From Anaerolineales bacterium (lineage in GTDB: Bacteria; Chloroflexota; Anaerolineae; Anaerolineales; UBA11579), in NCBI GenBank assembly GCA_040902265.1, contig JBBDXQ010000108.1:1706-65705 (forward strand): a stretch of DNA of 64,000 nt. Direction: 5' to 3'. The notes under the pieces were generated by a model. That model was not told the DNA's origin. It was given only the letters and a program-made list of their open reading frames with translations, and did not search any database. Of the stretch, positions 13,444-40,531 are shown one piece after another. The stretch's first letter is position 1; each line of letters begins with the position of its first letter. The translations under genes were made by a program, and so were the position numbers.

Positions 13444-14601
13444 ATGAAACATAAAACGGAACCATTCTCAATCCTCTTCCTTGGATCTCAAATGGAAGTG
13501 GCCGGCGCACAGAGGGTTTTGCTCGCTCAGGCGCGCTGGTTCTACAAGCAGGGATACCCAGTTCAGGTGGTATTTTTTTATGACAAGCAAGGATTGGAAT
13601 CGTCCTGGCAAGCGGCCAATCCATTTCCAGTTCTCTCCTTGGTTGGTTGGAAGGAAAACACGCCTGTCCTTTTCAATATTCCCAAACTTGCCGGCGCGCT
13701 ATTTACTCTTTTTAAATTGCTAAGGAAAGACATCAAAGTCATCCTATCATTCACCCCGCATAGCAATTTGTTGGGGTTACCCATCGCCTGGTTGGCGCGC
13801 GTGCCTGCTCGTGTAGGCACCCACCACGGCTATATCCTGGGGGCATCGCGACTGTTTTCTTGGCTGCACGGCTGGCTCACCAATTCTCGTATCTGCAGCA
13901 TGTTGGTGGCTGTGTCTGCGCCAGTAGGCGAGCATGCGATAAAAATGGAAAAAGCAAAAAGCAGCAAGGTAATTGTCATCCAGAATGGTATTGAACCCTT
14001 GGAACAGAAACCGGGCGATAGGGAGCTGGTACGCAAACAGCTGGGGGTTCGGCTGGACGGACTCCTTCTGATCACTGTAGGGCGGCTCACTACCCAGAAA
14101 GGGCAGGACGTTCTGATAGAGGCGATTTCGCAAATTTCTTCTCTTTTCCCTCAAGCTCGCTTCGCTTTTGTGGGAGATGGCCCGCGGCGGTCCGCCTTAG
14201 AAGAAAAAGCGAAGCGCTTAGGAATCGATGGTCAAGTGCTTTTTCTCGGCGTCCGCGATGACGTGAGTAGTTTGCTGTACGCCTCCGATATTTTTATACA
14301 GCCCTCTTTATCGGAAGGCTTATCGCTCGCTTTTTTGGAAGCGCTTTTCGCAGGTTTACCAGTAGTGGTCACCAGGGTCGGTGGCGTTGCGGATGTGGTT
14401 GAGCATGGGCAGAGCGCCCTGCTGGTTCCCGCAGGCGACGCGGAAGAACTGGCCGCAGCCCTGGTGCGATTGCTTGGCGATGCGGCTTTACGACAGCGGC
14501 TGGCCCGGGCTGGCCAGGAACGCGCCGTTGCGAACCATGGCATCGAGAAAATGTGTCGGGCTTACGAAACACTGATGCAGGGGTTGTTGAATGCCTCTTA
14601 A
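13444..14601 (+). CDS. glycosyltransferase, GT4 family
   Basis: 385-aa ORF. 'QPSLSEGLSLAFLEALFAGLPVVVTRVGGVADVVEHGQSALLV'. Confidence 0.85.
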   Translation: MKHKTEPFSILFLGSQMEVAGAQRVLLAQARWFYKQGYPVQVVFFYDKQGLESSWQAANPFPVLSLVGWKENTPVLFNIPKLAGALFTLFKLLRKDIKVILSFTPHSNLLGLPIAWLARVPARVGTHHGYILGASRLFSWLHGWLTNSRICSMLVAVSAPVGEHAIKMEKAKSSKVIVIQNGIEPLEQKPGDRELVRKQLGVRLDGLLLITVGRLTTQKGQDVLIEAISQISSLFPQARFAFVGDGPRRSALEEKAKRLGIDGQVLFLGVRDDVSSLLYASDIFIQPSLSEGLSLAFLEALFAGLPVVVTRVGGVADVVEHGQSALLVPAGDAEELAAALVRLLGDAALRQRLARAGQERAVANHGIEKMCRAYETLMQGLLNAS

Positions 14602-16666
14602 AAAGAAAGCAAGTCGGGGAAAGTTCATATTAGAGAGAAAAGCCTTCGTGCTTGCTGGTGCCGGCTTGCTGGTAGTGTTGGCTGCCAGCGAATTGTTCAG
14701 CCTCGGCTGGGGTTCTGGAACTTGGCTGGGAAGGTTATCGGTTAAGTGGGCGCTAACTATCGCTCTGTTCTATTTGCCCCTCGCGACTTTACTGGTGCTA
14801 TTAACTATCGGTCTCTATGCTCCTGGCCGATTAAAAAGAACGCAAAAACGATTTCTCCGAATTCGGCAGAGTCTCGGGTTGTGGCGCTGGGCTTTGCTCG
14901 CCCCCTTCCTTATCTTCCTGCCATGGTTTGTTTTTTATTCAGCTTGGGGAGGCCTATTCATCGGTTTGTATTTCAGGGTGCTTCTATTTTTGATTGTTCT
15001 GGGGTTAGTTGCCGTTCTGCTGACAGATCATACGACCCAGCTGATTGAATGGCGATCTTTCCTTCTTGCTGGCCTCCTGCTGGGGGCGATCTTAGTGCTA
15101 GCCGAATCTTTTGTGCTGGTTACTGACTTCCCGTTCGCCCTGCACTGGTCAGAGGGCAATCGTCTTTGGGATTATTCGGTCAGCTTTGGCAGCGACCGCT
15201 TCAACTTTGCAGGCCCGGAGCCCATCTTCGTCTGGATCGATGCAGGGCGCCAGACCTTGTGGGGTTTGCCCTTCCTAATTCCCAACGTCCCCATATGGTT
15301 AGTGCGCTTTTGGAGCGCACTTCTGGTGACCGTACCATATGCCTTTCTCGGCTGGGCTGCCTTCAAGCCCGATGATAGCAAACGCGAATGGGTGGCAGTC
15401 GGATTGTGGTCGCTGATCTTCTTGAATCAAGGGCCGATCTATACACCGTTGGTATTAGCAGCCATACTGGTTGCGCTAACGCGGAGGAAGCCGATCTGGT
15501 TGGCGTTACCGCTCGTCTACTTGGCCGGACACTATGCTGGGCTGAGCCGCTTTACCTGGCGTTTTGCTCCCGCCATTTGGGCTGTGATACTGAGTTTTGG
15601 CGATTCGTCGCTGGCTCGGGGCGCAATAAGATGGCGTGATTGGCTGCGCGCGTTTGCCCTGGGTTTGGCAGGTATTTGGAGTAAAGGCCTTCCTATCCTG
15701 ATAGGAATCGTTCTCGGCCTTTCCCCTTTTTTGGCAAATGGAAATCTTGGGCCGGTTGAGCCTGGCGGTTCGGGTGGTTCGATAGAGACCCTCCAGGGAC
15801 TGCAAGCCGTTTCCATTCACCAGCCTTTCCTGTGGGAACGTCTTTTCCCTAATGACATATATGCGCCTGGAATTTTATTTGGTCTGGCCTTTGCCACGGT
15901 ACCGTTAATACTATTGATGATTAATTTGATCCAAAAGGGGCATTGGAAGACAGTCTTTTGGCAACAGGTGGCCATGGTGTTGGGCTTGGGGGCATTGCTG
16001 GTGGTTGGGGTCATAGCCAGCGCGAAAGTAGGCGGGGGCACAGATTTACACAATATGGATATGTTCCTGCTCGGCTTGGTGCTGGTGGCAGCTGTAGCCT
16101 GGGAAGGAGGCTTGGTCAATCGTCTCAATTCTCTCATTCGCGAGACAGCTACGCTGCGCTGGTTACTAGCTGCGATGATCCTGATCCCGGCCTTTTTACC
16201 CATGATTGAAGGCAAACCGCTTGAGCTGCCAACCCCCGAACGCACCCAGTTTGTACTTGCTCGCATTCAAAACAAAGTAATGTGTGCACGCCAGTTTGGA
16301 GAAGTGCTCTTCATGGACCAACGTCAACTTATTACCTTTGGATTAATGGGAGACCTACCTCTGGTCGATGAATACGAGAAGAAGTATGTGATGGACCAGG
16401 CTTTATCTAGTAATTCAGCCTACTTCGAAAAATTTCGAGAAGATCTGGCAATCGGTCGTTTCGCGTTGATAGTCACCGAACGCGAAGCGCTGCAATTCAA
16501 AGAGGCGGACCTGGAAAGCATAGGCGATGGCTTGATAGAAGAAAATAACGCCTGGGTCACCTGGGTCACGACCCCCTTGCTAGACTACTATGAATCGGTA
16601 AGCGAATTCAAAGACGCAGCTGTGGAAATGTTCATGCCCATCGAGCGTGATTTTGACTGTCCCTGA
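14591..16666 (+). CDS. polytopic membrane protein with a C-terminal soluble domain, function unknown (possible GT-C-like or polymerase-like)
   Basis: 691-aa ORF overlapping the upstream gene by 11 nt. More than 12 hydrophobic segments are followed by a roughly 140-aa hydrophilic tail ('CARQFGEVLFMDQRQLITFGLMGDLPLVDEYEKKYVMDQ...'). No family recognised. Confidence 0.5.
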   Translation: MPLKKKASRGKFILERKAFVLAGAGLLVVLAASELFSLGWGSGTWLGRLSVKWALTIALFYLPLATLLVLLTIGLYAPGRLKRTQKRFLRIRQSLGLWRWALLAPFLIFLPWFVFYSAWGGLFIGLYFRVLLFLIVLGLVAVLLTDHTTQLIEWRSFLLAGLLLGAILVLAESFVLVTDFPFALHWSEGNRLWDYSVSFGSDRFNFAGPEPIFVWIDAGRQTLWGLPFLIPNVPIWLVRFWSALLVTVPYAFLGWAAFKPDDSKREWVAVGLWSLIFLNQGPIYTPLVLAAILVALTRRKPIWLALPLVYLAGHYAGLSRFTWRFAPAIWAVILSFGDSSLARGAIRWRDWLRAFALGLAGIWSKGLPILIGIVLGLSPFLANGNLGPVEPGGSGGSIETLQGLQAVSIHQPFLWERLFPNDIYAPGILFGLAFATVPLILLMINLIQKGHWKTVFWQQVAMVLGLGALLVVGVIASAKVGGGTDLHNMDMFLLGLVLVAAVAWEGGLVNRLNSLIRETATLRWLLAAMILIPAFLPMIEGKPLELPTPERTQFVLARIQNKVMCARQFGEVLFMDQRQLITFGLMGDLPLVDEYEKKYVMDQALSSNSAYFEKFREDLAIGRFALIVTEREALQFKEADLESIGDGLIEENNAWVTWVTTPLLDYYESVSEFKDAAVEMFMPIERDFDCP

Positions 16667-19298
16667 AGTGAAGGTAAACAAAAAAATGCACACTGGTCGG
16701 GGATTGGGTCTTTTTCGCGGTTTCTTTTTATTGCCCGCCATTGAAGCGCTGCTTGCTATTGCACTGATATTTTTCATTCCCAGTGAGGGAAACCAGGCTT
16801 CATTTCTCGGTCTTTCCCTGGTCCGCTGGGTGTTTGTGGCAGGCTTGTTGGCACTGGGCTTATTGTGTACCATCTTTTTTTGGATGAATCAGAGCAGGCA
16901 TAAAGACTGGCCGGTGATTGAGAAAGTAATTCAGAATGGGATAAATCATCCATCAATCTATAGGTTGTTAATCGCCATCGCCCTTTTTCTTTCGGTAGGC
17001 GGGTTTTATCTGCTGCTACTTACATTCAAATTCACAGATGAATTTATGCAGCCTCTTCTTTTGCGCGTGTTTCCTCTTGTGCTCTGGTTGTTTCTCCTCA
17101 GTGTTCAAACCCTGGTCTTTTTCCCTCGACTTCGCTTTAGAACAAGGCAGAGAAGAACAAAAACTTGGCTGCCGGTCTTAATCGCTCTCGGCGCGATTGC
17201 TTTAATCGCCATCTTTATGGGAGTGACCGGTCTTGGCCTGCAACCCGACCGTACCGGCTGGGAGAATCCCGGCGTCCCGCTCTTGGCTATTCAGATCTTT
17301 TTTGCATGGGTGGGAGCTGGACTGTTGTATGCCCTTATCCATCTACTCGAAAAGCGCTTTGAATGGCGATTCTCGCGAGGTGACCAGTTAGCCGCCGTGG
17401 TGTTGTGGCTGTTGGCCATCTGGGTTTGGCAAACCCAACCACTTACGCCGACTTACTTCTCTCCCACCCCGCGGCCGCCCAACGCAGAGCTCTACCCTTA
17501 TTCGGATGCAGCTACGCACGACTTAGCAGCCCAGAAACTCCTTATTGGCGAAGGGTTTGGCGACGTCGTTGAAAAGCCTCTATATAGTTTTTTCCTGGCA
17601 GGTTTACATACACTGGTGGGTCAGGATTATGCCAACGTAGTAGCCGCCCAGGTTGTGGTACTGGCTCTTTTTCCGGCCTTGTTATATTTCCTGGCTGGCC
17701 AGCTTCATCACCGGTTTTCGGGGGCAATTCTGGCAGTTGCCATAATTTATAGAGAAGCGAATACTATCAACCTGTCGGGGGAGATCAATGTTTCTCATTC
17801 CAAGTTATTGATGACCGACCTGCCAGCTGCCCTGGGAATGGCCTTGCTCGTTTTGCTTCTATTGCGCTGGCTGGAATCAGATCGGCGTCTTCTACGGTGG
17901 CCGCTTTGGGTGGGAGCTGCGCTGGGCGCCTTTTTGCTTCTTCGCTCGCAGATCATCATTTTCTTGCCCCTCCTGCTGTTGCTCGCTTTTTGGCGAGGTG
18001 GAAAGTTGCTTCGGACCCGCGCCTTGTATGCTGGGTTGTTCCTTCTGGGATTCGCACTAACTGCGGTTCCCTGGATGTGGCGCAATTATCAACATACGGG
18101 TCAATTTGGATACTCACAACCTTTACAAGCGCTTTATTTGGCCAAGCAATACAGTCTGACGCCCGAGGAAGCCGATCCAGGTTTTCCTGAAGGCACGCGT
18201 GTTTCGGAATACGTTTCGCTGGGTTTTTCCAGGGTATTGCAATTCACCTTCAGCCATCCCGATGTAGTGGTGAGGTTTGCAAGCGCCCACTTCTTTCATA
18301 ATGAGCTATCTTCCTTTTTAGCCTTGCCGATGCGCTTTGATCTAGCGGACAAGGCAGTCACTTTTTACAATCTGCGGCCTTTTTGGATTGGGTCTGAAGG
18401 TCGCCTCTGGGAAGAGTGCTGTTCGTTGAACAGCTATCTCAGCGATACACCCTATTGGCAAAATTGGGATGGAATAATCCCTGACGATGCCTGGTTGCCC
18501 ATTTTTGTCAATACCCTCATTGTTTCAGTTGGCTTTTTAGCTGCATGGCGAAAAGTGGGCTGGCTGACTCTGGTGCCGGTGGGGGTCCACGTTTTTTACA
18601 ATTTCAGCACTGCCGTAGCGCGCGTATCGGGTTGGCGTTTGATCCTGCCAGTCGATTGGGTGCTGCTTCTTTTTTATTGTTTAGGCCTTGGTCAGCTTAC
18701 GTTGTGGGCTTGGACTTATTTCTTCGGCGCCAACCTGGCTGAACCCGCCCTGCCTAGCATTCGGTCAAAAAGCCGCGTGCCGGGGTGGCGTCAGCAAAAG
18801 CTGCCAGTTTTGGTAGCCAGCCTCTTGTTTGCGGGCCTGCTGCTTCCTGTGGCTGAAATCGCCGTCCCCGCCCGCTATGCGGATCTGGACACCGTAACTG
18901 CCGAAGTGGAGTGGCAAAGCTCCCAGTTAGCAGAACAAACCGGGCTGGATCTTTCGGCTTTTCTAGGACAACCAGGAGCCGTCCAGTTTTGGGGGCGAGC
19001 ACTATACCCGCGGTTTTACGCCGCAGGTACCGGAGAGCCGGGCGGTGATGGAACTGCTTTCAACATACAGCCATTTGCCAGGTTGGCGTTTTGGGTAGTG
19101 GGGCAGGGGAACAATCAGGTGGCTTTGCCGCTGGCTAGCCCTCCGGTTTTTCCGAACGCGGTGGATGTGATGGTCTTGGGTTGCGCGCATGAAAAATATT
19201 TTCGAGCTGCAGCTGTTGTGTTTCTTGAAGGCGAGTCGACCGACTTGTTATCCGATGATCCCTTCGCATTCCTGTGTTCTCCTACCGCGTCACCGTAG
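16647..19298 (+). CDS. large GT-C-like integral membrane protein (paralogue of 24209-26818)
   Basis: 883-aa ORF; start GTG 16647 or ATG 16686. Many TM segments. The conserved loop 'YPYSDAATHDLAAQKLLIGEGF' and the blocks 'ALFPALLYFLAGQLHHRFSG', 'SHSKLLMTDLPAAL' and 'ARVSGWRLILPVDW' are shared almost verbatim with the ORF at 24209. Confidence 0.6.
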   Translation: MILTVPEVKVNKKMHTGRGLGLFRGFFLLPAIEALLAIALIFFIPSEGNQASFLGLSLVRWVFVAGLLALGLLCTIFFWMNQSRHKDWPVIEKVIQNGINHPSIYRLLIAIALFLSVGGFYLLLLTFKFTDEFMQPLLLRVFPLVLWLFLLSVQTLVFFPRLRFRTRQRRTKTWLPVLIALGAIALIAIFMGVTGLGLQPDRTGWENPGVPLLAIQIFFAWVGAGLLYALIHLLEKRFEWRFSRGDQLAAVVLWLLAIWVWQTQPLTPTYFSPTPRPPNAELYPYSDAATHDLAAQKLLIGEGFGDVVEKPLYSFFLAGLHTLVGQDYANVVAAQVVVLALFPALLYFLAGQLHHRFSGAILAVAIIYREANTINLSGEINVSHSKLLMTDLPAALGMALLVLLLLRWLESDRRLLRWPLWVGAALGAFLLLRSQIIIFLPLLLLLAFWRGGKLLRTRALYAGLFLLGFALTAVPWMWRNYQHTGQFGYSQPLQALYLAKQYSLTPEEADPGFPEGTRVSEYVSLGFSRVLQFTFSHPDVVVRFASAHFFHNELSSFLALPMRFDLADKAVTFYNLRPFWIGSEGRLWEECCSLNSYLSDTPYWQNWDGIIPDDAWLPIFVNTLIVSVGFLAAWRKVGWLTLVPVGVHVFYNFSTAVARVSGWRLILPVDWVLLLFYCLGLGQLTLWAWTYFFGANLAEPALPSIRSKSRVPGWRQQKLPVLVASLLFAGLLLPVAEIAVPARYADLDTVTAEVEWQSSQLAEQTGLDLSAFLGQPGAVQFWGRALYPRFYAAGTGEPGGDGTAFNIQPFARLAFWVVGQGNNQVALPLASPPVFPNAVDVMVLGCAHEKYFRAAAVVFLEGESTDLLSDDPFAFLCSPTASP

Positions 19299-19315
19299 TT
19301 CGAACTCTCGAAAGG

Positions 19316-19321
19316 TATAAT
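19316..19321 (+). promoter_or_regulatory. -10-like TATAAT in the gap after the first GT-C paralogue
   Basis: 'aaaggTATAATTTTCAttgc'. The same 11-mer TATAATTTTCA recurs at 26829-26839, after the second paralogue. Confidence 0.3.
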
Positions 19322-19328
19322 TTTCATT

Positions 19329-19346
19329 GCGCCTCTTAAGAGGCGC
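19329..19346. promoter_or_regulatory. perfect 18-nt palindrome/hairpin (GCGCCTCTT|AAGAGGCGC) covering the SD-like AAGAGG of the radical-SAM gene
   Basis: Read directly: gcgcctcttaagaggcgc, followed by tcttattATG (ATG 19354). The right arm contains AAGAGG 10 nt upstream of the ATG. Confidence 0.5.
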
Positions 19347-19353
19347 TCTTATT

Positions 19354-20838
19354 ATGTCCATTACCCTGATCAATCCCAATCTAGTCGTACAACGCTCTGA
19401 CCCTTTTACCACCGGCATCGTATATATGCCCATCAGCCTGGCTTACCTGGCGGCTGCTCTGCGCGAGGCGGGCCGCGCGGTGCAGGTGATTGATGCCTAT
19501 GCGGACGCCCCGCGCCAGAACCATACGGATGGGGCTTTTATTTTCTTTGGAATAACTGTCAAGCAAATCACTGATCAGCTTCCTGATGATTTGGAGGCTG
19601 TATTTGTGTATGCGATTAATCTGACCAACCACCTATCCACATTGTCTATCGTAAGGGCGATAAAGGCATCTAGACCCAACATGCCGCTGGTTATCGTGGA
19701 AAATACCCAGGCGGTGACCGCCTATTCGCTATCAGAAGTGGCAGCCGAGTTTTACTTGGCAGGTGCGGATTACATTCTGACTGGCGAAGCGGAGTGGCGC
19801 GCAACCCAGTTACTAGACGCGATTGCCGCGGGTGCAAAGGAAGAAACTTTGCGCACCCTAGATGGGTTAGGAACTCCGAGACACTACAACCCACCTCAGG
19901 GGTTTTTTACTGAGTCGCAGCTTGACGCCCTGCCGTTGCCAGCTTGGGATCTATTTCCATTGGAAAATTATTGGGCTTTGCATTTTGCGCATGGACCAAT
20001 TTCGTCTCAGCGTTACCTACCCTTGCTCACGTCACGCGGCTGCCCCTACCCCTGCGGCTTCTGCGTAGTGCCTGCCACTAATAGACAAAAGTGGCGGCCG
20101 CGTTCGGCCGGCTCGGTGGTTGATGAAATTGAGCATTTCTACAAAACACTGGGCGTCGATGAGTTCCATATCGAAGACCTGGATCCCACCATTTCTGATA
20201 AGCGCATCCGCCAGATCTGTGCTGAGCTCATCCGGCGAGATCTGCACATCACTTGGAAGGTCGCCGCAGGTACCAAAGTCGAGACTATGCGTGACGAGGA
20301 AACCATTGACTTGATGGCAGCCGCGGGTTGCCGTTATATTTCGATTTCCCCAGAGACGGGTTCACCGCGCCTACTGAAACTGATGCGCAAGCCATTCAAC
20401 CTTGAGCACGCTGTGCGCCAGGTTAAACGCATGAATAAAGTAGGCATCCGATCCCAGGCGTGCTTCGTTTTGGGATACCCAGGCGAGACAGATGAAGACT
20501 TGCATCTGACCTGGGACCTGGTGAGAGACCTGACTCGCGTTGGTGTAGATGAGGTGGCGCTTTTCATTGTCACCCCGGTACCCGGTTCCGCGATTCACAA
20601 GCAATTCAGCGGCTACAACACTCTTTCCGAACTGAATTTCAGCCCCACCTGGCGCCAGGATTATGAGCGCCTTAATCGCTTCCGGGTGCGCTTGTATGCC
20701 CATTTTTTGTGGTGGAAATTGCGTTATCATCCGATTAAGTTGCTACGCCAACCGTTCAATTTCCTCAGGCGCCGATTTGAGACCAAGATGGAGATGGTGC
20801 CCTACCGGGCGCTTGTGTTGCGTTGGCTGGCGCGATGA
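19354..20838 (+). CDS. B12-binding-domain radical SAM enzyme
   Basis: ATG 19354 is preferred over TTG 19327. N-terminal Rossmann-like B12-type domain ('LAYLAAALREAGRAVQVIDAYAD'). Cluster motif 'LLTSRGCPYPCGFCVVP' (CX3CX2C). 'ISISPETGS' and 'FVLGYPGETDED' are TIM-barrel radical-SAM blocks. Confidence 0.85.
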   Translation: MSITLINPNLVVQRSDPFTTGIVYMPISLAYLAAALREAGRAVQVIDAYADAPRQNHTDGAFIFFGITVKQITDQLPDDLEAVFVYAINLTNHLSTLSIVRAIKASRPNMPLVIVENTQAVTAYSLSEVAAEFYLAGADYILTGEAEWRATQLLDAIAAGAKEETLRTLDGLGTPRHYNPPQGFFTESQLDALPLPAWDLFPLENYWALHFAHGPISSQRYLPLLTSRGCPYPCGFCVVPATNRQKWRPRSAGSVVDEIEHFYKTLGVDEFHIEDLDPTISDKRIRQICAELIRRDLHITWKVAAGTKVETMRDEETIDLMAAAGCRYISISPETGSPRLLKLMRKPFNLEHAVRQVKRMNKVGIRSQACFVLGYPGETDEDLHLTWDLVRDLTRVGVDEVALFIVTPVPGSAIHKQFSGYNTLSELNFSPTWRQDYERLNRFRVRLYAHFLWWKLRYHPIKLLRQPFNFLRRRFETKMEMVPYRALVLRWLAR

Positions 20839-21764
20839 AGGGTAGGGTAAAAGCAGCGGAAAAAAAAATAGCGGTGGCTATTCCTTGCCACAATGAAGCT
20901 GCCACTATTGCCAGTGTGGTTCGTGATTTTCGCAAGGCCCTTCCTAAAAGCAAGGTGTATGTCTATGACAATGCTTCTACGGATAATAGCGCCGCATTAG
21001 CTCGCAAAGCAGGTGGCCAGGTGCGCTATGTCTCAACGCTGGGTAAGGGCAATGTGTTGCGCGCTATCTTTGATGAGCTACAGGAAGATGTAGTGGTGTT
21101 GGCAGATGGGGACGCCACTTACTTGGCAGAGGAAGTTCATCAGCTAACCACCCCTGTTTTGAACGGGGTGGCAGACATGGTTGTTGGCGAACGGCTAACG
21201 GCTGTTTCGGACGACAGCATGAAACCTATCCATCAATTTGGAAATCGTTTGATCGTGGCTTACATCAATCGCTTGTTCGGGACAAAATACCGGGATGTAC
21301 TATCCGGTTACCGCGCTTTCAATCGGCGCTTCATCGAGAGCGTACCCGTGTTGACCGCAGGCTTCGAAGTAGAAAGCGAGATTACCTTGCAAGCCTTGGC
21401 GGAAGGCTTGCGCGTCGTTGAAGTGCCGGTCCACTATCGTGACCGCCCGAAGAACAGCCATTCCAAGCTGCGCCCCTTTGCAGATGGTTACCGCATTGTG
21501 CTAACCGCGGCCATCTTGTTGCGCGATCACCGTCCTTTGAGGCTGTTTGGGTCTATTGCGCTCGGCTTGTGGCTGTTGGCGCTGATCGCGGTCATCCTGC
21601 GTGTATTTAATTTTCTCGGGCAGACCGGGCTACCGGTAAACATACTGAACGGTGTTATCCTGCTGGGCTTGCCGACCGGTTTGATCGCCTTGGGTATCGG
21701 CCTTTCTTTGAACGCCATCAATACTCGCTTCCAAGAGATCAAAACATTTCTGCGCCGGCGTTAA
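20835..21764 (+). CDS. GT2 glycosyltransferase with C-terminal TM helices (polyprenyl-phosphate sugar synthase type; DPM1/GtrB/ArnC-like)
   Basis: ATG 20835 forms an ATGA overlap with the radical-SAM gene. 'IAVAIPCHNEAATIASVVRDF..VYVYDNASTDNS', 'VLADGDATY', 'SGYRAFNRRF', then two hydrophobic helices ('LRLFGSIALGLWLLALIAVIL', 'GVILLGLPTGLIALGIGLSL'). Confidence 0.8.
   Translation: MKGRVKAAEKKIAVAIPCHNEAATIASVVRDFRKALPKSKVYVYDNASTDNSAALARKAGGQVRYVSTLGKGNVLRAIFDELQEDVVVLADGDATYLAEEVHQLTTPVLNGVADMVVGERLTAVSDDSMKPIHQFGNRLIVAYINRLFGTKYRDVLSGYRAFNRRFIESVPVLTAGFEVESEITLQALAEGLRVVEVPVHYRDRPKNSHSKLRPFADGYRIVLTAAILLRDHRPLRLFGSIALGLWLLALIAVILRVFNFLGQTGLPVNILNGVILLGLPTGLIALGIGLSLNAINTRFQEIKTFLRRR
20860..20868 (+). 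repeat. A9 homopolymer tract inside the 5' end of the GT2 gene (codons 9-12)
   Basis: 'gcggAAAAAAAAAtagcg' encodes ..AEKKI... It is the longest homopolymer I noticed in a coding region here. Confidence 0.9.
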
Positions 21765-21765
21765 T

Positions 21766-22701
21766 GTGATGATCGAAAATCTCAATCAGTATCAGGCGTT
21801 GCTGGAAACCGTCCCCTGCAATCTGTGCGGAGCAGATGACTACGAGGTCATTTACCCGCCGCGCTATGAACTGGCTAAGCCTGAAGAGATTGCCAACACC
21901 TTCCGCTCCTCGGGTGACGAGGTGCTGATAGACCAACTGGTACGCTGCAAACGCTGTGGTCTGCAGTTCCTCAACCCGCGTCTGCGCGCCGATGTGGTCA
22001 TCGACGGGTATAGCGTTGGCAGCGACGAACTTTTCGTCTCGCAAGCCCTGGGGCGCGAGCGCACCTTCGCTAAATCGCTTAAGATGATCGAAGGTCTGTA
22101 TCCGCAGCGCGGACGTCTACTGGACATTGGGACCGCCGGAGGCTCATTTTTGGCTGTGGCCAGGAAGGCGGGCTGGGAAGTTGCCGGCTGTGAACCCAAC
22201 CGTTGGCTTTGCGAGTGGGCTAACCAGCACTATGACCTGAGCGTCGTCCCGGGGACCGTATTCGATATGCAACTGGCAGCAGCTTCCTTTGATGTGGTTA
22301 CTTTATGGGACGTGCTGGAGCACACTTCCGATCCCAAAGCCACACTGCAGGAATGTAAGCGAGTGCTGATGCAAAAGGGGCTTTTGGTGGTCAATTACCC
22401 TGACATTGCATCCCCGGTGAGCCGTGTGATGAGGCGCAAGTGGGTTTTCCTGTTGTCAGTCCATCTGTATTACTTTACTGGCAAAACCTTGCCGCTCATG
22501 CTGGAAGAATTGGGTTTCAAAGTCGTGCAACGCAGACGCCACTGGCAAACTCTTGAGCTGGGCTATATCTTGTTCCGCATGGAGGCTTATCTCAAGCCAA
22601 TCGCGCGCGTTTTTGGCTGGTTGGTGATATGGCTTGGGTTGGCTCACCTGCAAATACCCTATTGGATGGGCCAGAACCTGGTGATCGCCGAAAAGCAATA
22701 A
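21766..22701 (+). CDS. class I SAM methyltransferase with an N-terminal Cys4 zinc-ribbon
   Basis: 311-aa ORF. 'CNLCGADDYEV....CKRCGLQFLNP' (CxxC...CxxC), 'LLDIGTAGGSFLAVARKAGWEVAGCEPN', 'FDVVTLWDVLEHTSDP'. Confidence 0.75.
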   Translation: MMIENLNQYQALLETVPCNLCGADDYEVIYPPRYELAKPEEIANTFRSSGDEVLIDQLVRCKRCGLQFLNPRLRADVVIDGYSVGSDELFVSQALGRERTFAKSLKMIEGLYPQRGRLLDIGTAGGSFLAVARKAGWEVAGCEPNRWLCEWANQHYDLSVVPGTVFDMQLAAASFDVVTLWDVLEHTSDPKATLQECKRVLMQKGLLVVNYPDIASPVSRVMRRKWVFLLSVHLYYFTGKTLPLMLEELGFKVVQRRRHWQTLELGYILFRMEAYLKPIARVFGWLVIWLGLAHLQIPYWMGQNLVIAEKQ

Positions 22702-22729
22702 TCACAGTTATCATTCACAAACTAATTCA

Positions 22730-22757
22730 GCGGGCGGCTTCTGGCCGCCCGCTTGTT
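22730..22757 (+). terminator. intrinsic-terminator-like hairpin after the methyltransferase gene
   Basis: GCGGGCGGC-ttctg-GCCGCCCGC is a perfect 9-bp GC stem (10 bp with the flanking A:T). It is followed by TTGTT, so the U-tract is short and imperfect. Confidence 0.5.
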
Positions 22758-22768
22758 GGAGACCCAAA

Positions 22769-24190
22769 TTGGCAGATAAAAAGAAGATCGTTATTTTAGG
22801 CGCTGGGGTTGGCGGACTGGCTGCGGGCTACTTCTTGGCCCGCACCGGTAAATTCCAGGTGACCGTTTTGGAAAAAGAACCTGTTATCGGCGGTTTGTGC
22901 GCCAGTTTTGAGCATGATGGCTTTATTCTGGATTATGGCGCTCACAAGCTGTACTCGGTGATCCCTGGTGTGTTAGAGGAAGTGGTTTCTCTGATGGGCG
23001 AACGCCTGTTACGCCTGCCAAAGAAGAACCGCCTCTTCTTGGATGGCCACTTGGTGGATTACCCCTTGAAGTTGGGCAATCTGGCCAAGGTTCTTGGGCC
23101 GTTTCGCTTTCTGAAACTTGGGTTGGGATATGTTATTCAAATTATCGTAGGGGCCTTTAGGCGAGGCCAGCCGCGTTCTTATGAAGATTACATAATCCGC
23201 CGCTTCGGAACCCCCACTTACGAATTGGTGTTTAAGCCTCTGGCGGAAAAGGTTTGGGGAGACCCCGCCAGCTTGCATCCCGAGATGGCGCGCACGCGCT
23301 TGCCGGCATCCGGCGGGATGGACCTGATCCTAAAGTTGATTGGGTTACGCAAAGAGACTGCAACCACTAACGCAGAGTTCTTTTATTACCCGCGCACCGG
23401 GTTTGGCGATTGGCCACAGGCACTTGCCGAGGGGATACGTACATTCGGAGGCGAAGTGCTGACCTCAGTTAATGTGCGGGGTCTAGTGACATACGATGGT
23501 AAGGTGCAGAGTGTGTTACTAAACACCAGCGAGGAAACAAAAGAGCTCGACTGCGATTATTTAATTTCCTCCCTTCCCCTGCCCCTACTGGGGGGGATGG
23601 TTTTTGGCGAAAAGGACGTAGAGTTCAACCAAGCGGTAAAAGGGCTGCAATTCCGTCATTTAATCCTGGTCTATATTGACGTGAAACGCCCCCTGGTCTT
23701 GGCAGATCAATGGATATTTTTTCCTCAGCGCAATGTGATCTTTAGTCGTCTCTTTGAACAAAAACAAATGAACCCGGAATTGGGTCCAGCAGACCGAACG
23801 ATGATCACTGCCGATTTCACCGCGGATGAGGGTAGTGAATTATGGAAAGCCAGTGATGAAACGTTAGCCCAGCGCGTGGTTGATGGCCTAGTGCACACCG
23901 GGCTGATCAAGCGCGAAGAAGTGTTAAGCAGCCTGGTGATCCGCCGGCGTAACTTTTACCCGCGCTACGATCTGGCTTATGCTGAGAAGATGAAGCTGGT
24001 CAGTGACAGGTTGCGTTTGGTACCGAATCTGCTTACCACTGGACGCATCGGCATGTACAACTACAACAACTCAGACCATTGCGCTGATATGGGCCGCTTC
24101 ATCGCAGAGCAATTGGCCGCAGGTGAAGCGCCGCCTGAGATCTGGCGCGCGCTGGAGCAACGCGTCGCAGATTATAAGATCGTGGATTAA
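22769..24190 (+). CDS. FAD/NAD(P)-binding oxidoreductase (amine-oxidase/UDP-galactopyranose-mutase-like superfamily)
   Basis: 473-aa ORF. TTG start preceded by GGAG at a 7-nt spacing. 'KKIVILGAGVGGLAAGYFLA..VTVLEKEPVIGG' is a dinucleotide-binding fold. C-terminal 'LLTTGRIGMYNYNNSDHCADMG' resembles the GR-x-G-x-Y-x-Y block of UGM-type flavoenzymes. Confidence 0.7.
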   Translation: MADKKKIVILGAGVGGLAAGYFLARTGKFQVTVLEKEPVIGGLCASFEHDGFILDYGAHKLYSVIPGVLEEVVSLMGERLLRLPKKNRLFLDGHLVDYPLKLGNLAKVLGPFRFLKLGLGYVIQIIVGAFRRGQPRSYEDYIIRRFGTPTYELVFKPLAEKVWGDPASLHPEMARTRLPASGGMDLILKLIGLRKETATTNAEFFYYPRTGFGDWPQALAEGIRTFGGEVLTSVNVRGLVTYDGKVQSVLLNTSEETKELDCDYLISSLPLPLLGGMVFGEKDVEFNQAVKGLQFRHLILVYIDVKRPLVLADQWIFFPQRNVIFSRLFEQKQMNPELGPADRTMITADFTADEGSELWKASDETLAQRVVDGLVHTGLIKREEVLSSLVIRRRNFYPRYDLAYAEKMKLVSDRLRLVPNLLTTGRIGMYNYNNSDHCADMGRFIAEQLAAGEAPPEIWRALEQRVADYKIVD

Positions 24191-24208: not shown

Positions 24209-26818
24209 ATGGCAGCTAAGGTATCGTTTCCAATTTGGTATATAAATCTTTTTTTGTCCGCCTTTTTTGGTTGGTTATGCTTGGTCTGGCTGCTCAGTGC
24301 AGCCAGCGAGCCAGCCAGCGCGGTTGTGCTTGGTTATTCACTTGAACGCTTGGTGCTTGCCGCAATCTTGTTTGTTTCCGCGGCCGCATTTAGTTCCTTG
24401 GCGCTAATCAGTTGGCGTGATGGTTTCTGGCTAGAAAAAGTTAATCGTTTAGCAAAGTCAATCATCGTAAACGGCAGAAATGCCTGGCTAATCGGGGGAA
24501 TTGGATTGTCTGTACTCATCGTTTGCTGGATTCTGTTTTTCCTTTCGCCAGAGCGGACGATCATGTTGCTTGGTTCACTGTCCTTATATATAGAAAGGGT
24601 CAAACCACTATTGCTGTATGCGCTATTGCTAAGCTTGATCTGGTTGCCACAATTGTTGTTCATCCGTTTTGGTATTGATATCAAAGCTGTTGAAAACGAA
24701 CGCGATACCGTGCGACGAAGCTTTGCCATTTCTGTTGGGTTGCTGAGCGCTGCAGCTGTCATTGGCCTCGCCGGCCTTGGCTTGGGTTTTGATGCCACCG
24801 AATGGAATGCGCCAAATGCCCCATTATTAAGCGGCCAGATATTCATTAACCTACTGCTCGTCTTGTTGACGCTGGCGGCAGCCTTCGGGTTACGCAGTTG
24901 GATGAAGGGGAGGTCGCCTTACGCAGAACATCGGTTTGATCTGGCTTTGGCTGGTCTCGTTTGGTTCCTAGCTGCAGTCTTGTGGCTGGGGCAGCCAGCC
25001 GCACCTACTTACTACAATTCACCGGCTCTACCTCCCGCGGATCAAAGTTACCCTCTTTCGGATGCGTTCAACCATGATGTGATTGCAAACAATGTCCTGA
25101 TCGGCGAGGGATTCCGTTTTGGTGGGCAGGTGGCTATCCGCCGACCGGCTTATGTGCTGTTCTTGGCTGGGCTTGAGGGCATGCTCGGTGCTGATTATGC
25201 GGCAGTGGTAACCGTTCAAGTGATCTTACTGGCGCTTTTCCCCGCGTTGCTGTATTTGCTCGGCGCTAAACTGCATAGCCGCTTTACGGGCTTATTCCTG
25301 GCCGGGTTGATTATTTTGCGTGAAACCAACTCGATTGCCTTGGGTGATGTGATCAACACGTCACATGCCAAGTTGCTTATGGTCGATCTGCCCGCAGCAT
25401 TGATGACGGCTGCTGTGGCGTTCGCGGTAATCAGCTGGTTGAGCCGTCCTGCGCACAATCCGATAACTGCTTTCTTGGTAGGAGGCTTACTGGGCTTGGC
25501 TATCCTATTGCGCTCCCAAAACCTGACCTTGTTGCCCTTTATTGTCTTGCTGGCCTTACTTGTTTGGGGCTGGCGGGCAGCCTGGCGGCCTGTTTTATTG
25601 TTCACCCTCGGCGCGCTGCTTGTGGCCGCCCCGTGGATTGTGCGGAACCGAGTGCTGATTGGGCAATGGGTGATCGAAGATGCGGCCGTCTCCGGGTTCC
25701 TAGCCAACCGTTACAGCTTCACGCCTGGTACGTTTGGACTACCTTTTTTACAGGGGGAAAATGAAGGCGATTATTACGCACGCCAGATGGGTCACGTGCG
25801 TGAGTTCGCCTTGCAAAACCCGGGGTATGTGGCCAGTTTTGTGGCCGATAATTTTGTGCGCAACCAGATGGTTAATTTCATGGCTATGCCACTATCTTTA
25901 CAGCTTCGTGACGCGGAATCCCACGTGCGCCAATTGCCTTATTGGCCAAGCTGGGATGGGAGTTTGGCTTTCGAAAGTTATATTCCCGTGCTTGCTAACA
26001 TACTAATCATCGGGGTGGGGTTGGCCTCGGCCTGGAAACAAGCGCGCTGGGTAGGCTTGGTGCCTTTGTTCATCAATATTGGTTTCACATCCAATTTAGC
26101 CTTGGCCCGTGTTTCAGGTTGGCGTTACAACCTGCCTGTTGATTGGACGATGCTGTTTTATTATGCGCTTGGCGTAGGCCAGCTTTTCGTGTGGGGTTTG
26201 TTACTACTGGGCGGAGTGCGGTGGGCTAAGAATTTTCTGGCTAACCTGCAACCTGTAAAAGTTAAGAAAACTGATCGGCGAGTAAATGAGAGCCGTGTGC
26301 CCATTAGGAATTACGCTGCCGTTCTCATCGTGTTGCTCTTCGTAGGAGCATCTTTCTCGATCATCGAAGCGCTAAGTACATCGCGTTATACAGACGTCAC
26401 GCGCGAACAGGCAGCGGTTTTGCTGACCGAGACAGAAACGCAGAATGAAGCTGGTAAGCATCAACTGCTTGAGCTTTTGTCTGCAGGAAAGTTGGGGGTG
26501 TTTTCTGGACGAGCGCTTCACCCGCGTTATTTCGCGGCAGGTGAAGGCATTCCGGAGAGAGAGTTTGTATTGATTACCCCCTTAGATTTTGAGCGCTTAA
26601 CCTTTTACCTGCTTGGCCCGGACCCCGCCTCTGTCATTCTGCCCGTGGATGGTGTGCCAGCCAGTTTTCCCGCCAGTTCGAACGTGTTCGTATTCCATTG
26701 CGGTGATACATTGCAGGCAGCCGCCGTGATCATTGTTTACGAAGATAAATTGGCGAGGCTGATTATCTCCAATCGCTTAGTAGAGGGCTGCCCCAGCTTG
26801 ATTTCTCAGACCCCATAA
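24209..26818 (+). CDS. large GT-C-like integral membrane protein (paralogue of 16647-19298)
   Basis: 869-aa ORF. 'YPLSDAFNHDVIANNVLIGEGF', 'ALFPALLYLLGAKLHSRFTG', 'SHAKLLMVDLPAAL', 'ARVSGWRYNLPVDW', 'GRALHPRYFAAGEG' are all collinear with the 883-aa ORF. Confidence 0.6.
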   Translation: MAAKVSFPIWYINLFLSAFFGWLCLVWLLSAASEPASAVVLGYSLERLVLAAILFVSAAAFSSLALISWRDGFWLEKVNRLAKSIIVNGRNAWLIGGIGLSVLIVCWILFFLSPERTIMLLGSLSLYIERVKPLLLYALLLSLIWLPQLLFIRFGIDIKAVENERDTVRRSFAISVGLLSAAAVIGLAGLGLGFDATEWNAPNAPLLSGQIFINLLLVLLTLAAAFGLRSWMKGRSPYAEHRFDLALAGLVWFLAAVLWLGQPAAPTYYNSPALPPADQSYPLSDAFNHDVIANNVLIGEGFRFGGQVAIRRPAYVLFLAGLEGMLGADYAAVVTVQVILLALFPALLYLLGAKLHSRFTGLFLAGLIILRETNSIALGDVINTSHAKLLMVDLPAALMTAAVAFAVISWLSRPAHNPITAFLVGGLLGLAILLRSQNLTLLPFIVLLALLVWGWRAAWRPVLLFTLGALLVAAPWIVRNRVLIGQWVIEDAAVSGFLANRYSFTPGTFGLPFLQGENEGDYYARQMGHVREFALQNPGYVASFVADNFVRNQMVNFMAMPLSLQLRDAESHVRQLPYWPSWDGSLAFESYIPVLANILIIGVGLASAWKQARWVGLVPLFINIGFTSNLALARVSGWRYNLPVDWTMLFYYALGVGQLFVWGLLLLGGVRWAKNFLANLQPVKVKKTDRRVNESRVPIRNYAAVLIVLLFVGASFSIIEALSTSRYTDVTREQAAVLLTETETQNEAGKHQLLELLSAGKLGVFSGRALHPRYFAAGEGIPEREFVLITPLDFERLTFYLLGPDPASVILPVDGVPASFPASSNVFVFHCGDTLQAAAVIIVYEDKLARLIISNRLVEGCPSLISQTP

Positions 26819-26843: not shown

Positions 26844-28409
26844 ATGCCAAAACAAATAAGCCCACCAGTAATATTAAGAATGAATTTTCAAAATATTGGC
26901 GCAACTTTAGCCGGCCTGCTGCTACCATCATTCGTGTTGGCATGGATTTCCTCGCGCTTCACTGCAATATCTGGCTGGCCTTCTTTCTTTGCGATCCTCA
27001 TCGTTTGTGCCGTACTCTATTGGTTGGCCTGGCGCACTTTGCGCGCCGAGCCCCTGCCGCGCTGGTTGTTATGGCTGACGCTGATAGCGGCCCTATTGCG
27101 TCTGGCGCTTGGTGTCGTTTGGTTCATTGCATTGCCCGCTGGAGGCTACGAAACCGAGGTACAGCAAGCTGGCTATGTAATGGAGGATGCTTACAACCGC
27201 GACCAGGCTGCCTGGGAACTGGCGCAGTCTGACCAACCTTTGCTCGTTTCATTTCAAGGATACAGTTCCACAGACCAGTATGGTGGGTTGTTGTTTATGA
27301 GCGCCGCGGCCTATCGCTACCTGGGGGGAACGGAGCATCAACCACTGCTGGTGTTGAGCTTGGCCGCCTCTTTCTCATCGCTCGCAATTCCATTCACCTG
27401 GGCTTTTGGTCGACGCGTCTTTGGCGGCAAAGTGGCTCTCGGGGCGGCCTGGGGATTGGCTCTCTATCCGGAAGCAGTCTTGCTTGGTTCGTCCCAAATG
27501 CGAGAGGCTTTCACCGTCTGCCTCGTCCCGTTGGCAATCTATGGCCTCTTGCGCTTCCGCGAAAAACCGGATTGGCGCAATCTGGCGATATTAGTAGCCC
27601 CGATGGTTTTATCGATTCCGCTTACTTGGGCGTTCACGCCTTCATTTGTCCTGCTTCTGGCGCTCATGTATTTGGCGCTGGAGGATTGGCGCTGGCTGCA
27701 TTCGCCCAAAGCCTGGATTGCCTTGGCCTTACTGGCTCTTATTCTGGTTACCGGTTTCTTATTGTTTGTAGATCAAAATAGCCTATGGTTGGTGCAATCA
27801 GCTAAATGGCAGGCTTATGTCAGCGCTAACTCTTCGGGTTGGGTAGCGCGTCAATTTGAGCGCATGCCACTGTTCGCGCAGATTCCCTTTCTGGTGATAT
27901 ACGGCATCTTGCGTCCGTTGCTGCCAGCCGCCCTGGTGGCCAGCGGACCAATCATCTGGATGACGATCGGAATTTGGCGTGCCCTGGGCTGGACTGTATT
28001 GCTGGCACTGCTGCTCTATGGCAGCTATTTGGCCGTAAAAACCAAAAGTTGGCGTCAGGCTCCTGGAGCTCTGATATTAGCCAATTGGATAGTGATCCTC
28101 ACTACTTCTTATCGCGGTGGCGGTGACCTTTGGGATAGCCCGCGCTATCGAAGCGCTTTCGCAGCGGTACAGGTTCTACTGGCTTCCTGGGCCTGGTTTC
28201 AATATAGAGACACCAAGGATCCCTGGTTGCGCCGGGTGGCTGTCGGGGCCGCGTTGATAATGGGCTGGTTCGTGCCCTGGTATTTACGTCGCTACTCCAA
28301 TTTCGATTGGCCGATAGTTGAGCTTTATCAAGTGATTGGGTTGGGGGTGGCAAGCGCGGTCTTGTTTATCCTCTGGGACTGGATGGGGCCGAATAAGCAA
28401 ATGCCTTGA
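26844..28409 (+). CDS. polytopic membrane protein, unknown function (possibly GT-C-like)
   Basis: 521-aa ORF with about 12 or more hydrophobic segments. An acidic first loop is present ('ETEVQQAGYVMEDAYNRDQAAWELA'). No family recognised by eye. Confidence 0.5.
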   Translation: MPKQISPPVILRMNFQNIGATLAGLLLPSFVLAWISSRFTAISGWPSFFAILIVCAVLYWLAWRTLRAEPLPRWLLWLTLIAALLRLALGVVWFIALPAGGYETEVQQAGYVMEDAYNRDQAAWELAQSDQPLLVSFQGYSSTDQYGGLLFMSAAAYRYLGGTEHQPLLVLSLAASFSSLAIPFTWAFGRRVFGGKVALGAAWGLALYPEAVLLGSSQMREAFTVCLVPLAIYGLLRFREKPDWRNLAILVAPMVLSIPLTWAFTPSFVLLLALMYLALEDWRWLHSPKAWIALALLALILVTGFLLFVDQNSLWLVQSAKWQAYVSANSSGWVARQFERMPLFAQIPFLVIYGILRPLLPAALVASGPIIWMTIGIWRALGWTVLLALLLYGSYLAVKTKSWRQAPGALILANWIVILTTSYRGGGDLWDSPRYRSAFAAVQVLLASWAWFQYRDTKDPWLRRVAVGAALIMGWFVPWYLRRYSNFDWPIVELYQVIGLGVASAVLFILWDWMGPNKQMP

Positions 28410-28429: not shown

Positions 28430-28455
28430 TGTTATAATTCAACTGTTGAATTATA
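28430..28455. promoter_or_regulatory. extended -10 (TGtTATAAT) embedded in a perfect 11-bp inverted repeat (TATAATTCAAC-t-GTTGAATTATA); candidate promoter/operator of the regulator gene
   Basis: Read directly: cttgtTATAATTCAACtGTTGAATTATAgag. It lies in the 36-nt gap between the membrane-protein gene and the wHTH gene. Confidence 0.5.
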
Positions 28456-28961
28456 GAGCCAGTGTGGATCCGAATATCGACACCTCCCGCGACATGCTCC
28501 TTTTGGAGCATATCGAAATCGATCCTGATGTAACACAGGCATCCCTCGCTGCGCTGTTGGGTATTGCCGTGGGCACGGTGAATTGGCACTTAAAACGCTT
28601 GGTGGCCAAAGGGTATGTGAAGGTAAAGCGAGCCCAGCGCCGCAAGTTACGCTATATCATCACGCCTCAAGGCCTCAGTCGCCGAGCCCGACTGACAGTG
28701 AATTATGTAGAGCATTCTATGCAGCTTTATCGCAAGACACGCCGACGAGTGGGCCAGTTGCTGGACGAAGTCAAAAGGGCCGGGTATCAGGGTGTGCACA
28801 TCGATAAACTCAACGGCGACCCCGAAGACATTGCAGATATCTGCAAATTGACCTGCCTTGAGCAGGGCATGCTCTTGTTGCCGGAGCAGGAACCCGGCCC
28901 AACTCTGCGAGTGCATGGCCACAAGGTGCAACTGGAATGGGAACCCATGCATGAGCGCTAA
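28446..28961 (+). CDS. MarR-type winged-helix regulator (EPS-locus-associated MarR subfamily)
   Basis: 171-aa ORF. 'LLLEHIEIDPDVTQASLAALLGIAVGTVNWHLKRLVAKGYVKVKRAQRRKLRYIITPQGLSRRARLT' matches my recollection of the EPS-associated MarR pattern (HTH, then a wing with ..KL.Y.LTP.G). Start is uncertain: TTG 28446, GTG 28464 or ATG 28494. Confidence 0.65.
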   Translation: MNYRASVDPNIDTSRDMLLLEHIEIDPDVTQASLAALLGIAVGTVNWHLKRLVAKGYVKVKRAQRRKLRYIITPQGLSRRARLTVNYVEHSMQLYRKTRRRVGQLLDEVKRAGYQGVHIDKLNGDPEDIADICKLTCLEQGMLLLPEQEPGPTLRVHGHKVQLEWEPMHER

Positions 28962-38382: not shown

Positions 38383-38384
38383 GC

Positions 38385-39449: not shown

Positions 39450-39462
39450 CCCTGCCAGCCAA

Positions 39463-40530: not shown

Positions 40531-40531
40531 C

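Follow-up and report, generated by a model that had tools for sequence, protein, structure and literature searches.

We describe here a four-gene cassette that opens with a gene for a radical S-adenosylmethionine (SAM) enzyme at positions 19354-20838 (plus strand) of a stretch of 64,000 nucleotides from an Anaerolineales bacterium (contig JBBDXQ010000108.1, positions 1,706 to 65,705); the stretch as a whole, which comes from a genome assembled from metagenome, is called the window below, and all coordinates refer to it. The cassette consists of genes for the radical SAM enzyme, a family 2 glycosyltransferase (GT2), a zinc-ribbon methyltransferase and a flavoenzyme resembling UDP-galactopyranose mutase (UGM), and we consider it rather probable that the cassette produces a lipid-linked sugar donor which is methylated, tailored by radical chemistry and used in decoration outside the cytoplasm. 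The evidence consists of domain content, fold, the replacement of a motif, synteny and a natural gene fusion. Because the radical SAM gene is conserved beside genes for the methyltransferase and for a lipid-phosphate sugar synthase in more than ten phyla, its product probably tailors a surface sugar carried on a lipid.

In the radical SAM gene, a reading frame of 494 amino acids (aa) extends between ATG 19354 and TGA 20838; an in-frame TTG at 19327 is another possible start, and homologues start at ATG 19354. Homologues number thousands, with orthologues being 44-87% identical (among the matches listed, 120 orthologue clusters are 66-100% identical to the protein), and a protein of identical sequence is recorded in an NCBI Anaerolineales metagenome-assembled genome (P0001). 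With this many homologues and an identical protein on record, the reading frame is no chance one. The initial annotation, made from the sequence alone, had proposed this open reading frame (ORF), a 'CPYPCGFC' cluster and an overlap of the stop codon with the start of the GT2 gene, and all three agree with the present analysis. The [4Fe-4S] cluster-binding motif CPYPCGFC (CX3CX2C) occupies residues 230-237 (20041-20064, plus strand), and its cysteines C230, C234 and C237 are unchanged in all 41 orthologues aligned. The stop codon TGA (20836-20838) overlaps the start codon ATG (20835-20837) of the GT2 gene in an ATGA junction (20835-20838). The score of the protein against Pfam Radical_SAM (PF04055) was 78.5 bits, compared with a cut-off of 29.5.

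Class-B-like architecture was assigned from sequence and family scans, an AlphaFold2 model and Foldseek. The model (predicted local distance difference test (pLDDT) 88.6, predicted template-modelling (TM) score 0.90) comprises a Rossmann-like N-terminal domain (N-domain; about aa 1-165, 19354-19848, plus strand, delimited by alignment and model and free of cysteine), of which residues 1-160 form five parallel strands alternating with helices, a radical SAM core (partial TIM-barrel) and three C-terminal helices. Together with the Pfam Radical_SAM score, the modelled N-domain bears out the class-B-type architecture that had been suggested at the outset. The three helices form a conserved, clade-specific tail (aa 431-494, 20644-20835, plus strand; sequence and model) with a net charge of +12 and 13 aromatic residues, and such a cationic aromatic segment would fit a substrate that is anionic or lies at the membrane surface. 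It takes the place at which a DUF4070 tail had been looked for: Pfam gave Radical_SAM and, below their cut-offs, His_biosynth and B12-binding, and did not detect DUF4070. Searched with Foldseek against the PDB, the model matched AprD4 (PDB 6FD2), the radical SAM 1,2-diol dehydratase of apramycin synthesis, at the top (TM-score 0.68), followed by TsrM, MgmA, OxsB, MiaB, TokK and CysS; the probability was 1.0 for radical SAM cores, including those of cobalamin-dependent class-B enzymes. AprD4 is the closest solved structure by sequence as well (E 5.8e-20). No sequence-level match of the N-domain to any solved structure was found with a single-sequence or a profile query, the core alone being aligned.

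None of the curated NCBIfam cut-offs was reached by the protein. The scores were 144.3 bits (cut-off 575) for the Sden_1168 P-methylase and 93.6 bits (cut-off 600) for the second model of the Sden_1168/PhpK pair (NF038361/TIGR04479), 117.2 bits (cut-off 481) for BchE (TIGR02026), 112 bits (cut-off 750) for ApyD, 101.6 bits over residues 76-418 (cut-off 577.6) for HpnJ (TIGR03471) and 84.6 bits (cut-off 500) for AprD4 (NF033070), the class-B models aligning from about residue 24. Some orthologues carry the JGI labels 'anaerobic Mg-protoporphyrin IX monomethyl ester cyclase' or 'YgiQ'. Some related proteins (P0285, P0293, P0305, P0315, P0317 and others) are giants of 1,300-2,600 aa with two to four tandem class-B-like radical SAM modules.

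The three further genes of the cassette lie on the same strand. The GT2 gene (20835-21764, plus strand) encodes an enzyme that, as judged from Pfam, NCBIfam and structure-sequence matches, is of the polyprenyl-phosphate hexose synthase type; it has two membrane helices at the C terminus. Its best matches are AglJ, ArnC and dolichol-phosphate mannose (DPM) synthase; these matches and the two helices confirm its earlier designation as lipid-phospho-sugar-synthase-like, although the score against the AglJ model (216.8 bits) is below the cut-off of 325. The next gene (21766-22701, plus strand; Pfam, AlphaFold2 and synteny) encodes a class I SAM methyltransferase with an N-terminal CxxC...CxxC zinc ribbon, and its likely start at ATG 21769 gives a protein of 310 aa. 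The best full-length Foldseek matches of the methyltransferase model (pLDDT 88.0) are the nucleoside diphosphate (NDP)-ketosugar C3-methyltransferases MtmC, KijD1 and TcaB9 (TM-score about 0.60, zinc ribbon included), compared with TM-scores of 0.42-0.47 for generic methyltransferases, and a sequence-level match to 4rv9 spans residues 15-257. A zinc ribbon and a Rossmann methyltransferase domain are thus common to the cassette enzyme and to TcaB9, KijD1 and MtmC, whereas identity to these is 15-16% and Pfam Methyltransf_13 and Methyltransf_14 are lacking. The fourth gene (22769-24190, plus strand; family scans and alignment) encodes a protein dependent on flavin adenine dinucleotide (FAD) that is like UGM of the eukaryotic type (PRK07208 group). 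It aligns end to end with Aspergillus fumigatus UGM, and most of the active-site residues of that enzyme are kept, namely the GGH-loop His and those at the Trp/Arg, Tyr, Tyr and Asn-x-Asp-His positions; one Arg is replaced by Lys. On this resemblance it is regarded as a UGM-like flavoenzyme.

With one genome scanned for each species, 53 loci were obtained. According to taxon labels, which are those of metagenome bins and may contain errors, these belong to Chloroflexota, Cyanobacteria, Planctomycetota, Nitrospirota, Omnitrophota, Bdellovibrionota, Alphaproteobacteria, Nitrospinota, Elusimicrobiota, Myxococcota, Magnetococcales, Desulfobulbaceae, Synergistaceae, Actinomycetota and one Woesearchaeote. 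Synteny was counted by tblastn in the 39 loci, from more than ten phyla, in which the orthologue has 40% identity or more and the sequence continues for 4 kb or more downstream. The radical SAM gene is accompanied most constantly by the zinc-ribbon methyltransferase (37 of 39 loci), then by the DPM-like GT2 (35 of 39) and the FAD protein, which was found at 40% identity or more in 25 of 39. Two layouts are seen. In type A (24 loci, five phyla) the order is radical SAM-GT2-methyltransferase-FAD protein; in type B (11 loci, other phyla) radical SAM and methyltransferase genes are followed by four others, for a HAD protein of the beta-phosphoglucomutase family, a GlmU-like sugar-1-phosphate nucleotidyltransferase, a YvcK-like UDP-sugar-binding domain fused to an AglJ-like GT2, and a second AglJ-like GT2. 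A reading of type B as a CofC/CofD (F420-like phospho-transfer) system was dropped, the CofD-like domain being best matched to the YvcK UDP-GlcNAc-binding type and the nucleotidyltransferase being GlmU-like. In the window the cassette has genes for membrane glycosyltransferases of the GT-C type on both sides; in most other loci such genes are found close by, and PMT_2 or YfhO-like membrane proteins adjoin the cassette in several phyla.

A natural fusion joins the first two activities: P0243 (801 aa) consists of a radical SAM part, 54% identical to the window protein and with the ENTQAVTAY motif described below, and a DPM-like GT2. Three other apparent fusions of GT2 and radical SAM genes (L041, L044 and L051) were rejected, their BLAST matches lying in different reading frames; L044 in addition has a run of N. 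Synteny at this level and the fusion support a functional tie of the radical SAM gene to the glycosylation cassette in which it had been seen to be embedded, and since the linkage recurs in over ten phyla (35-37 of 39 loci), the adjacency is not confined to one genome. Additional genes are present in some loci. In Nitrospirota, two canonical class-B radical SAM genes with GG.HPT stand within the cassette (L024, 7162-8658 and 9716-11128; also L025 and L045), making three radical SAM enzymes in all. In Omnitrophota and Planctomycetota, an extra methyltransferase gene and a SPASM radical SAM gene follow the cassette (L036, 14715-18037; also L020 and L052), and so does a gene for a YfhO-like membrane protein in L036 and L020.

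The N-domain had been described at the outset as being of cobalamin type. Its modelled fold and its distant homology are consistent with this, but its score against Pfam B12-binding (PF02310) was 18.3 bits, below the cut-off of 32.1, and the label of a B12-binding enzyme is not established: the profile match is sub-threshold, the GG motif is replaced, and the best fold match, AprD4, binds no cobalamin. The PF02310 alignment ends at residue 114, immediately before the GG region, and precomputed matches to this family are present in about one third of the orthologues. The segment that follows strand 4 reads GGP in the solved cobalamin binders MgmA, TokK and CysS and GG.HPT in the canonical class-B paralogues from related loci; the latter were used for the comparison because the N-domain does not align to solved structures by sequence. 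The window protein has the motif ENTQAVTAY (aa 116-124, 19699-19725, plus strand) in place of this class-B 'GG.H.T' segment, the alignment being uniform in that EN(T/S)QAVTAY is invariant throughout the clade, and in one of two alignments the clade has about seven extra residues at the GG position. In an exhaustive search, clustered at 50% identity, the clade made up about 45 of the best 150 clusters. AprD4 acts on a sugar and has no cobalamin bound, and both AprD4 and ArsL homologues fall within the similarity network of B12 radical SAM enzymes, binding no cobalamin, according to a review (PMC12931638). A scan of the whole 64-kb window found no cobalamin riboswitch or other known RNA, and no cobalamin genes were found among the scanned ORFs of at least 150 aa up to 46.6 kb, one overlapped ORF per strand excepted. 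On balance, the cobalamin dependence of the radical SAM enzyme leans slightly to the doubtful side.

We infer the substrate, the step order and the chemistry of the cassette. The UGM-like enzyme would isomerise a nucleotide hexose, probably to the furanose; the radical SAM enzyme would tailor the sugar, beginning with the removal of a hydrogen atom by the 5'-deoxyadenosyl radical; the methyltransferase would methylate it; and the GT2 would place it on polyprenyl phosphate, the sequence in which these four steps are listed not being fixed as their order. Neighbouring GT-C enzymes would then move the sugar, outside the membrane, to a glycan exported by an ATP-binding cassette (ABC) transporter. 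For the radical step we tentatively prefer a cobalamin-free, AprD4-like reaction yielding a keto or deoxy-keto sugar, which the TcaB9-like methyltransferase would C-methylate at the carbon next to the carbonyl; this chemistry is a possible one rather than a probable one. Such an AprD4-like route would account for the strict pairing of radical SAM and methyltransferase genes and for the fact that a sugar 4,6-dehydratase is not a constant part of the cassette. C-methylation by the radical SAM enzyme, which the initial annotation had put forward, is reduced to one among several chemistries, such as dehydration to a keto sugar or ring contraction, because the evidence for cobalamin fails at the Pfam score, the GG motif, the AprD4 match and the DUF4070 tail. 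On a broader view, the EN(T/S)QAVTAY clade may descend from cobalamin-dependent class-B enzymes and have rebuilt the cofactor pocket, with cobalamin either lost or held anew through His93, and the enzyme and the TcaB9-like methyltransferase may together build a C-branched, deoxy or ring-altered sugar for the polyprenyl-phosphate donor; taken with all its parts, this scenario is a doubtful one.

With AprD4 the protein has in common a Rossmann-like N-domain, a radical SAM core and the beginning of the cluster motif, GCPYPC. The differences are that identity is about 21%, that the NCBIfam score is far from its cut-off, as given above, and that AprD4 acts on a free pseudodisaccharide, together with the reductase AprD3, in an antibiotic pathway and not beside GT2 and GT-C enzymes. 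A number of observations weigh against the cassette and its AprD4-like chemistry as read here. The cluster motif of AprD4, CPYPCRFYC, is of the form CX3CX3C, compared with CX3CX2C in the window protein. The top NCBIfam scores are those of cobalamin-dependent methylases and cyclases (Sden_1168 144, BchE 117, ApyD 112), AprD4 being lower at 85, and the protein is a member of a distinct clade of class-B architecture, marked by EN(T/S)QAVTAY, none of whose members is characterised. Full-length identity to the closest relatives that carry GG is 36-45%, so that cobalamin binding could persist in the clade. In solved enzymes, cobalamin rests against the loop edge of the N-domain sheet, formed by the loops after strands 1, 3 and 4. 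All three loops at this ligand-binding edge are invariant in the clade: D16/T19/T20/G21/Y24/P26 after strand 1, A87-I88-(N89)-L90-T91-(N92)-H93 after strand 3 (N89 and N92 being conserved in at least 90% and the rest invariant) and E116-N117-T118-Q119-A120-V121 after strand 4. His93 aligns with a Trp of the GG-type relatives, and the residue beneath the cobalt in TokK, TsrM and OxsB comes from the loop corresponding to that of His93 (PMC13331322). A reductase that would complete the AprD4-like route is not consistently present in the cassette. The partner methyltransferase is about 100 C-terminal residues shorter than the TcaB9-type enzymes. No flippase dedicated to the cassette was seen in a survey of the ORFs, no search aimed at flippases having been made, and between 14.5 and 28.4 kb there is neither a small multi-helix ORF nor free intergenic space.

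Direct C-methylation by a cobalamin-dependent class-B methylase is nearly as likely as the AprD4-like route, though tentative like it: methylcobalamin would supply a methyl group to an unactivated carbon of the sugar, and the class I methyltransferase would add a second methyl on O or N. TsrM, TokK, CysS, MgmA, OxsB and Sden_1168/PhpK have the same three-part architecture, are matched with a Foldseek probability of 1.0 and form the best NCBIfam group, and the models of class-B methylases align from N-domain residue 24 or so. Retention of the Rossmann-like N-domain with invariant edge loops and of His93 at the sub-corrin position (PMC13331322), as well as the GG motif of the nearest sister clades, points in the same direction. 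Canonical class-B radical SAM genes have moreover been inserted into the Nitrospirota cassettes, which indicates that class-B radical SAM chemistry is used on the pathway in those loci. The window clade differs from these enzymes, however, in the ENTQAVTAY motif that stands for the GG of MgmA, TokK and CysS (with some seven extra residues in one of the two alignments) and in its sub-threshold PF02310 match; the absence of cobalamin from AprD4, of a riboswitch from the window and of cobalamin genes from the ORFs scanned to 46.6 kb also argues against a methylase of this kind. Less probable by far is a ring contraction or rearrangement, by which a polyprenyl-phosphate hexose would become a carbocyclic or ring-contracted head group and then be O-methylated. 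HpnJ, which forms the cyclitol ether of hopanoids, and the calditol synthase Cds, both radical SAM enzymes, have been proposed to act on a lipid-bound hexose, remodelling it after its attachment by a glycosyltransferase (PMC13459092). The pathway logic is alike, the HpnJ model covers residues 76-418, the cationic aromatic tail would suit a substrate at the membrane surface, and the cassette includes a UGM-like enzyme of a kind that changes ring size. Against this, the HpnJ score is far below its cut-off and not the top one, the lipid contexts of HpnJ and Cds are those of hopanoids and archaeal tetraethers, neither of which applies here (no hpn genes were found in the window or the related loci), and a GT-C enzyme needs a donor with a glycosidic phosphate, so that a carbocycle could not be transferred likewise.

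The polyprenyl carrier or another membrane lipid might instead be the substrate, for example by methylation or cross-linking of an isoprenoid chain. Many class-B-like enzymes do act on lipids, among them HpnP, HpnR, Gmm and the ladderane enzymes (PMC13459092), and the cationic and aromatic tail as well as polyprenyl phosphate, the acceptor of the GT2, could be fitted to such a role. Modification of the carrier, raised in the initial annotation, is thus conceivable, but the likeness of the obligate partners to sugar-nucleotide enzymes (TcaB9-like, UGM-like, beta-phosphoglucomutase-like HAD, GlmU-like and YvcK-like) makes it less likely, and genes for isoprenoid synthesis were not found in the cassettes; we regard it as quite improbable. 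The remaining view, that the adjacency is incidental and that the radical SAM enzyme serves in peptide maturation or in cofactor or tetrapyrrole synthesis, could appeal to the automatic BchE and YgiQ labels of orthologues and to the 117 bits obtained with the BchE model. That score does not reach the cut-off of 481, no tetrapyrrole or peptide precursor genes lie nearby, and synteny that extends to 35-37 of 39 loci and to over ten phyla, together with the GT2 fusion, effectively refutes this view, to which we attach hardly any weight. Carotenoid, hopanoid, arsenosugar and mycofactocin contexts were likewise considered and rejected, as they gave weak matches only, with no supporting genes.

Read as proposed, the cassette would belong to the three-component glycosylation systems, which can include auxiliary enzymes for tailoring the lipid-linked donor (PMC11127046). 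As in GtrA/B/C, ArnC/ArnT and the pentofuranose systems of Kelly et al. 2024, a polyprenyl-phosphate sugar synthase and GT-C enzymes are present here, namely the GT2 with its membrane helices and the GT-C proteins encoded at 16647-19298 and 26844-28409, with a paralogue at 24209-26818. No three-component system with a radical SAM enzyme, a TcaB9-like methyltransferase and a UGM-like flavoenzyme was found described in the literature, nor was any paper found that describes the cassette or the EN(T/S)QAVTAY clade. The components are of known kinds; what is new is their combination and the fixed change of a motif in a B12-like domain. Radical SAM enzymes with such a domain are a very large group, mostly unassigned, in which real users of cobalamin are hard to tell. 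The clade offers a clean natural test of cobalamin use, with GG in close relatives, a fixed different motif in the clade and a gene context that is fully conserved. Lipid-phosphate sugar donors for GT-C enzymes are epimerised or deformylated before transfer; we know of no description of their tailoring by radical chemistry. If the proposal is true, radical chemistry would join the three-component scheme of surface glycosylation in more than ten, mostly uncultivated phyla. Confirmation would imply unusual methylated or branched surface sugars in Chloroflexota, Planctomycetota, Nitrospirota, Omnitrophota and other phyla, and would make a compact four-gene cassette available for glycoengineering.

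Upstream of the radical SAM gene, two short elements are conserved. The GGTATAAT box (19314-19321, plus strand), recognised by its conservation, resembles a -10 promoter element and is found at the same position in the window and in seven other Anaerolineales loci (L001, L002, L003, L005, L006, L047 and L049), in which the flanking intergenic sequence has diverged; a consensus promoter scan missed it because a good -35 element is absent. Its position and conservation suggest a promoter function. A perfect 18-nt palindrome, GCGCCTCTTAAGAGGCGC (19329-19346, plus strand; sequence and conservation), lies 8 nt ahead of the ATG, and its 3' arm includes AAGAGG, which is like a ribosome-binding site. 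The stem GCGCCTC/GAGGCG(C/T) is retained in the window and the same seven loci (eight in all), the loop being variable, and the palindrome probably acts as a stem-loop in the 5' untranslated region. The conserved box and stem-loop together suggest that a transcription unit of its own begins with the radical SAM gene and that the cassette is self-contained. In L003 (11482-12114) and also in L005, L007 and L049, a gene of about 210 aa for a Methyltransf_23 protein, of which there is none in the window, is inserted between the radical SAM and GT2 genes; the ATGA junction is therefore particular to the genome of the window, while the neighbourhood is not. Between the methyltransferase and flavoenzyme genes lies a GC-rich 10-bp hairpin (22729-22753, not assigned to a strand), identified from the sequence, which has no T-run on the plus strand.

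On both sides the cassette is bordered by genes for large membrane proteins, all on the plus strand. A polytopic protein of 691 aa with about 13 membrane helices (14591-16666) is conserved upstream in Anaerolineales, and is followed by a GT-C glycosyltransferase of the PMT_2 family (Pfam) with 883 aa and about 13 membrane helices (16647-19298). Downstream stand a paralogue of the latter with 869 aa and about 16-18 membrane helices (24209-26818), which falls into the same BLAST cluster, and a second PMT_2-family GT-C enzyme (Pfam) of 521 aa (26844-28409). The 691-aa and 869-aa proteins matched no Pfam or NCBIfam family, and they may therefore be divergent GT-C enzymes or polymerases.

As far as 46.6 kb, the window forms a single co-directional glycan island, with genes for many GT4 and GT2 glycosyltransferases, methyltransferases and one sugar aminotransferase, and, downstream of the cassette, for the ABC export transporter (Wzm, and Wzt with a Wzt_C domain). 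Nonulosonic-acid genes (PseB-like, RmlD-like, NeuB and CMP-transferase) and two sulfotransferase genes are located at 35547-41290 and 44603-45625, which suggests that the island glycan of this Anaerolineales bacterium is sulfated and includes a sialic-acid-like sugar. Behind the last GT-C gene, the ORF of a winged-helix (MarR-like) regulator (28446-28961) overlaps the start of an epimerase/dehydratase ORF (28858-29988) by about 100 nt; the epimerase start at 28858 has probably been called too far upstream. The pair of MarR-like regulator and epimerase/dehydratase is kept downstream of the cassette in many Chloroflexota loci.

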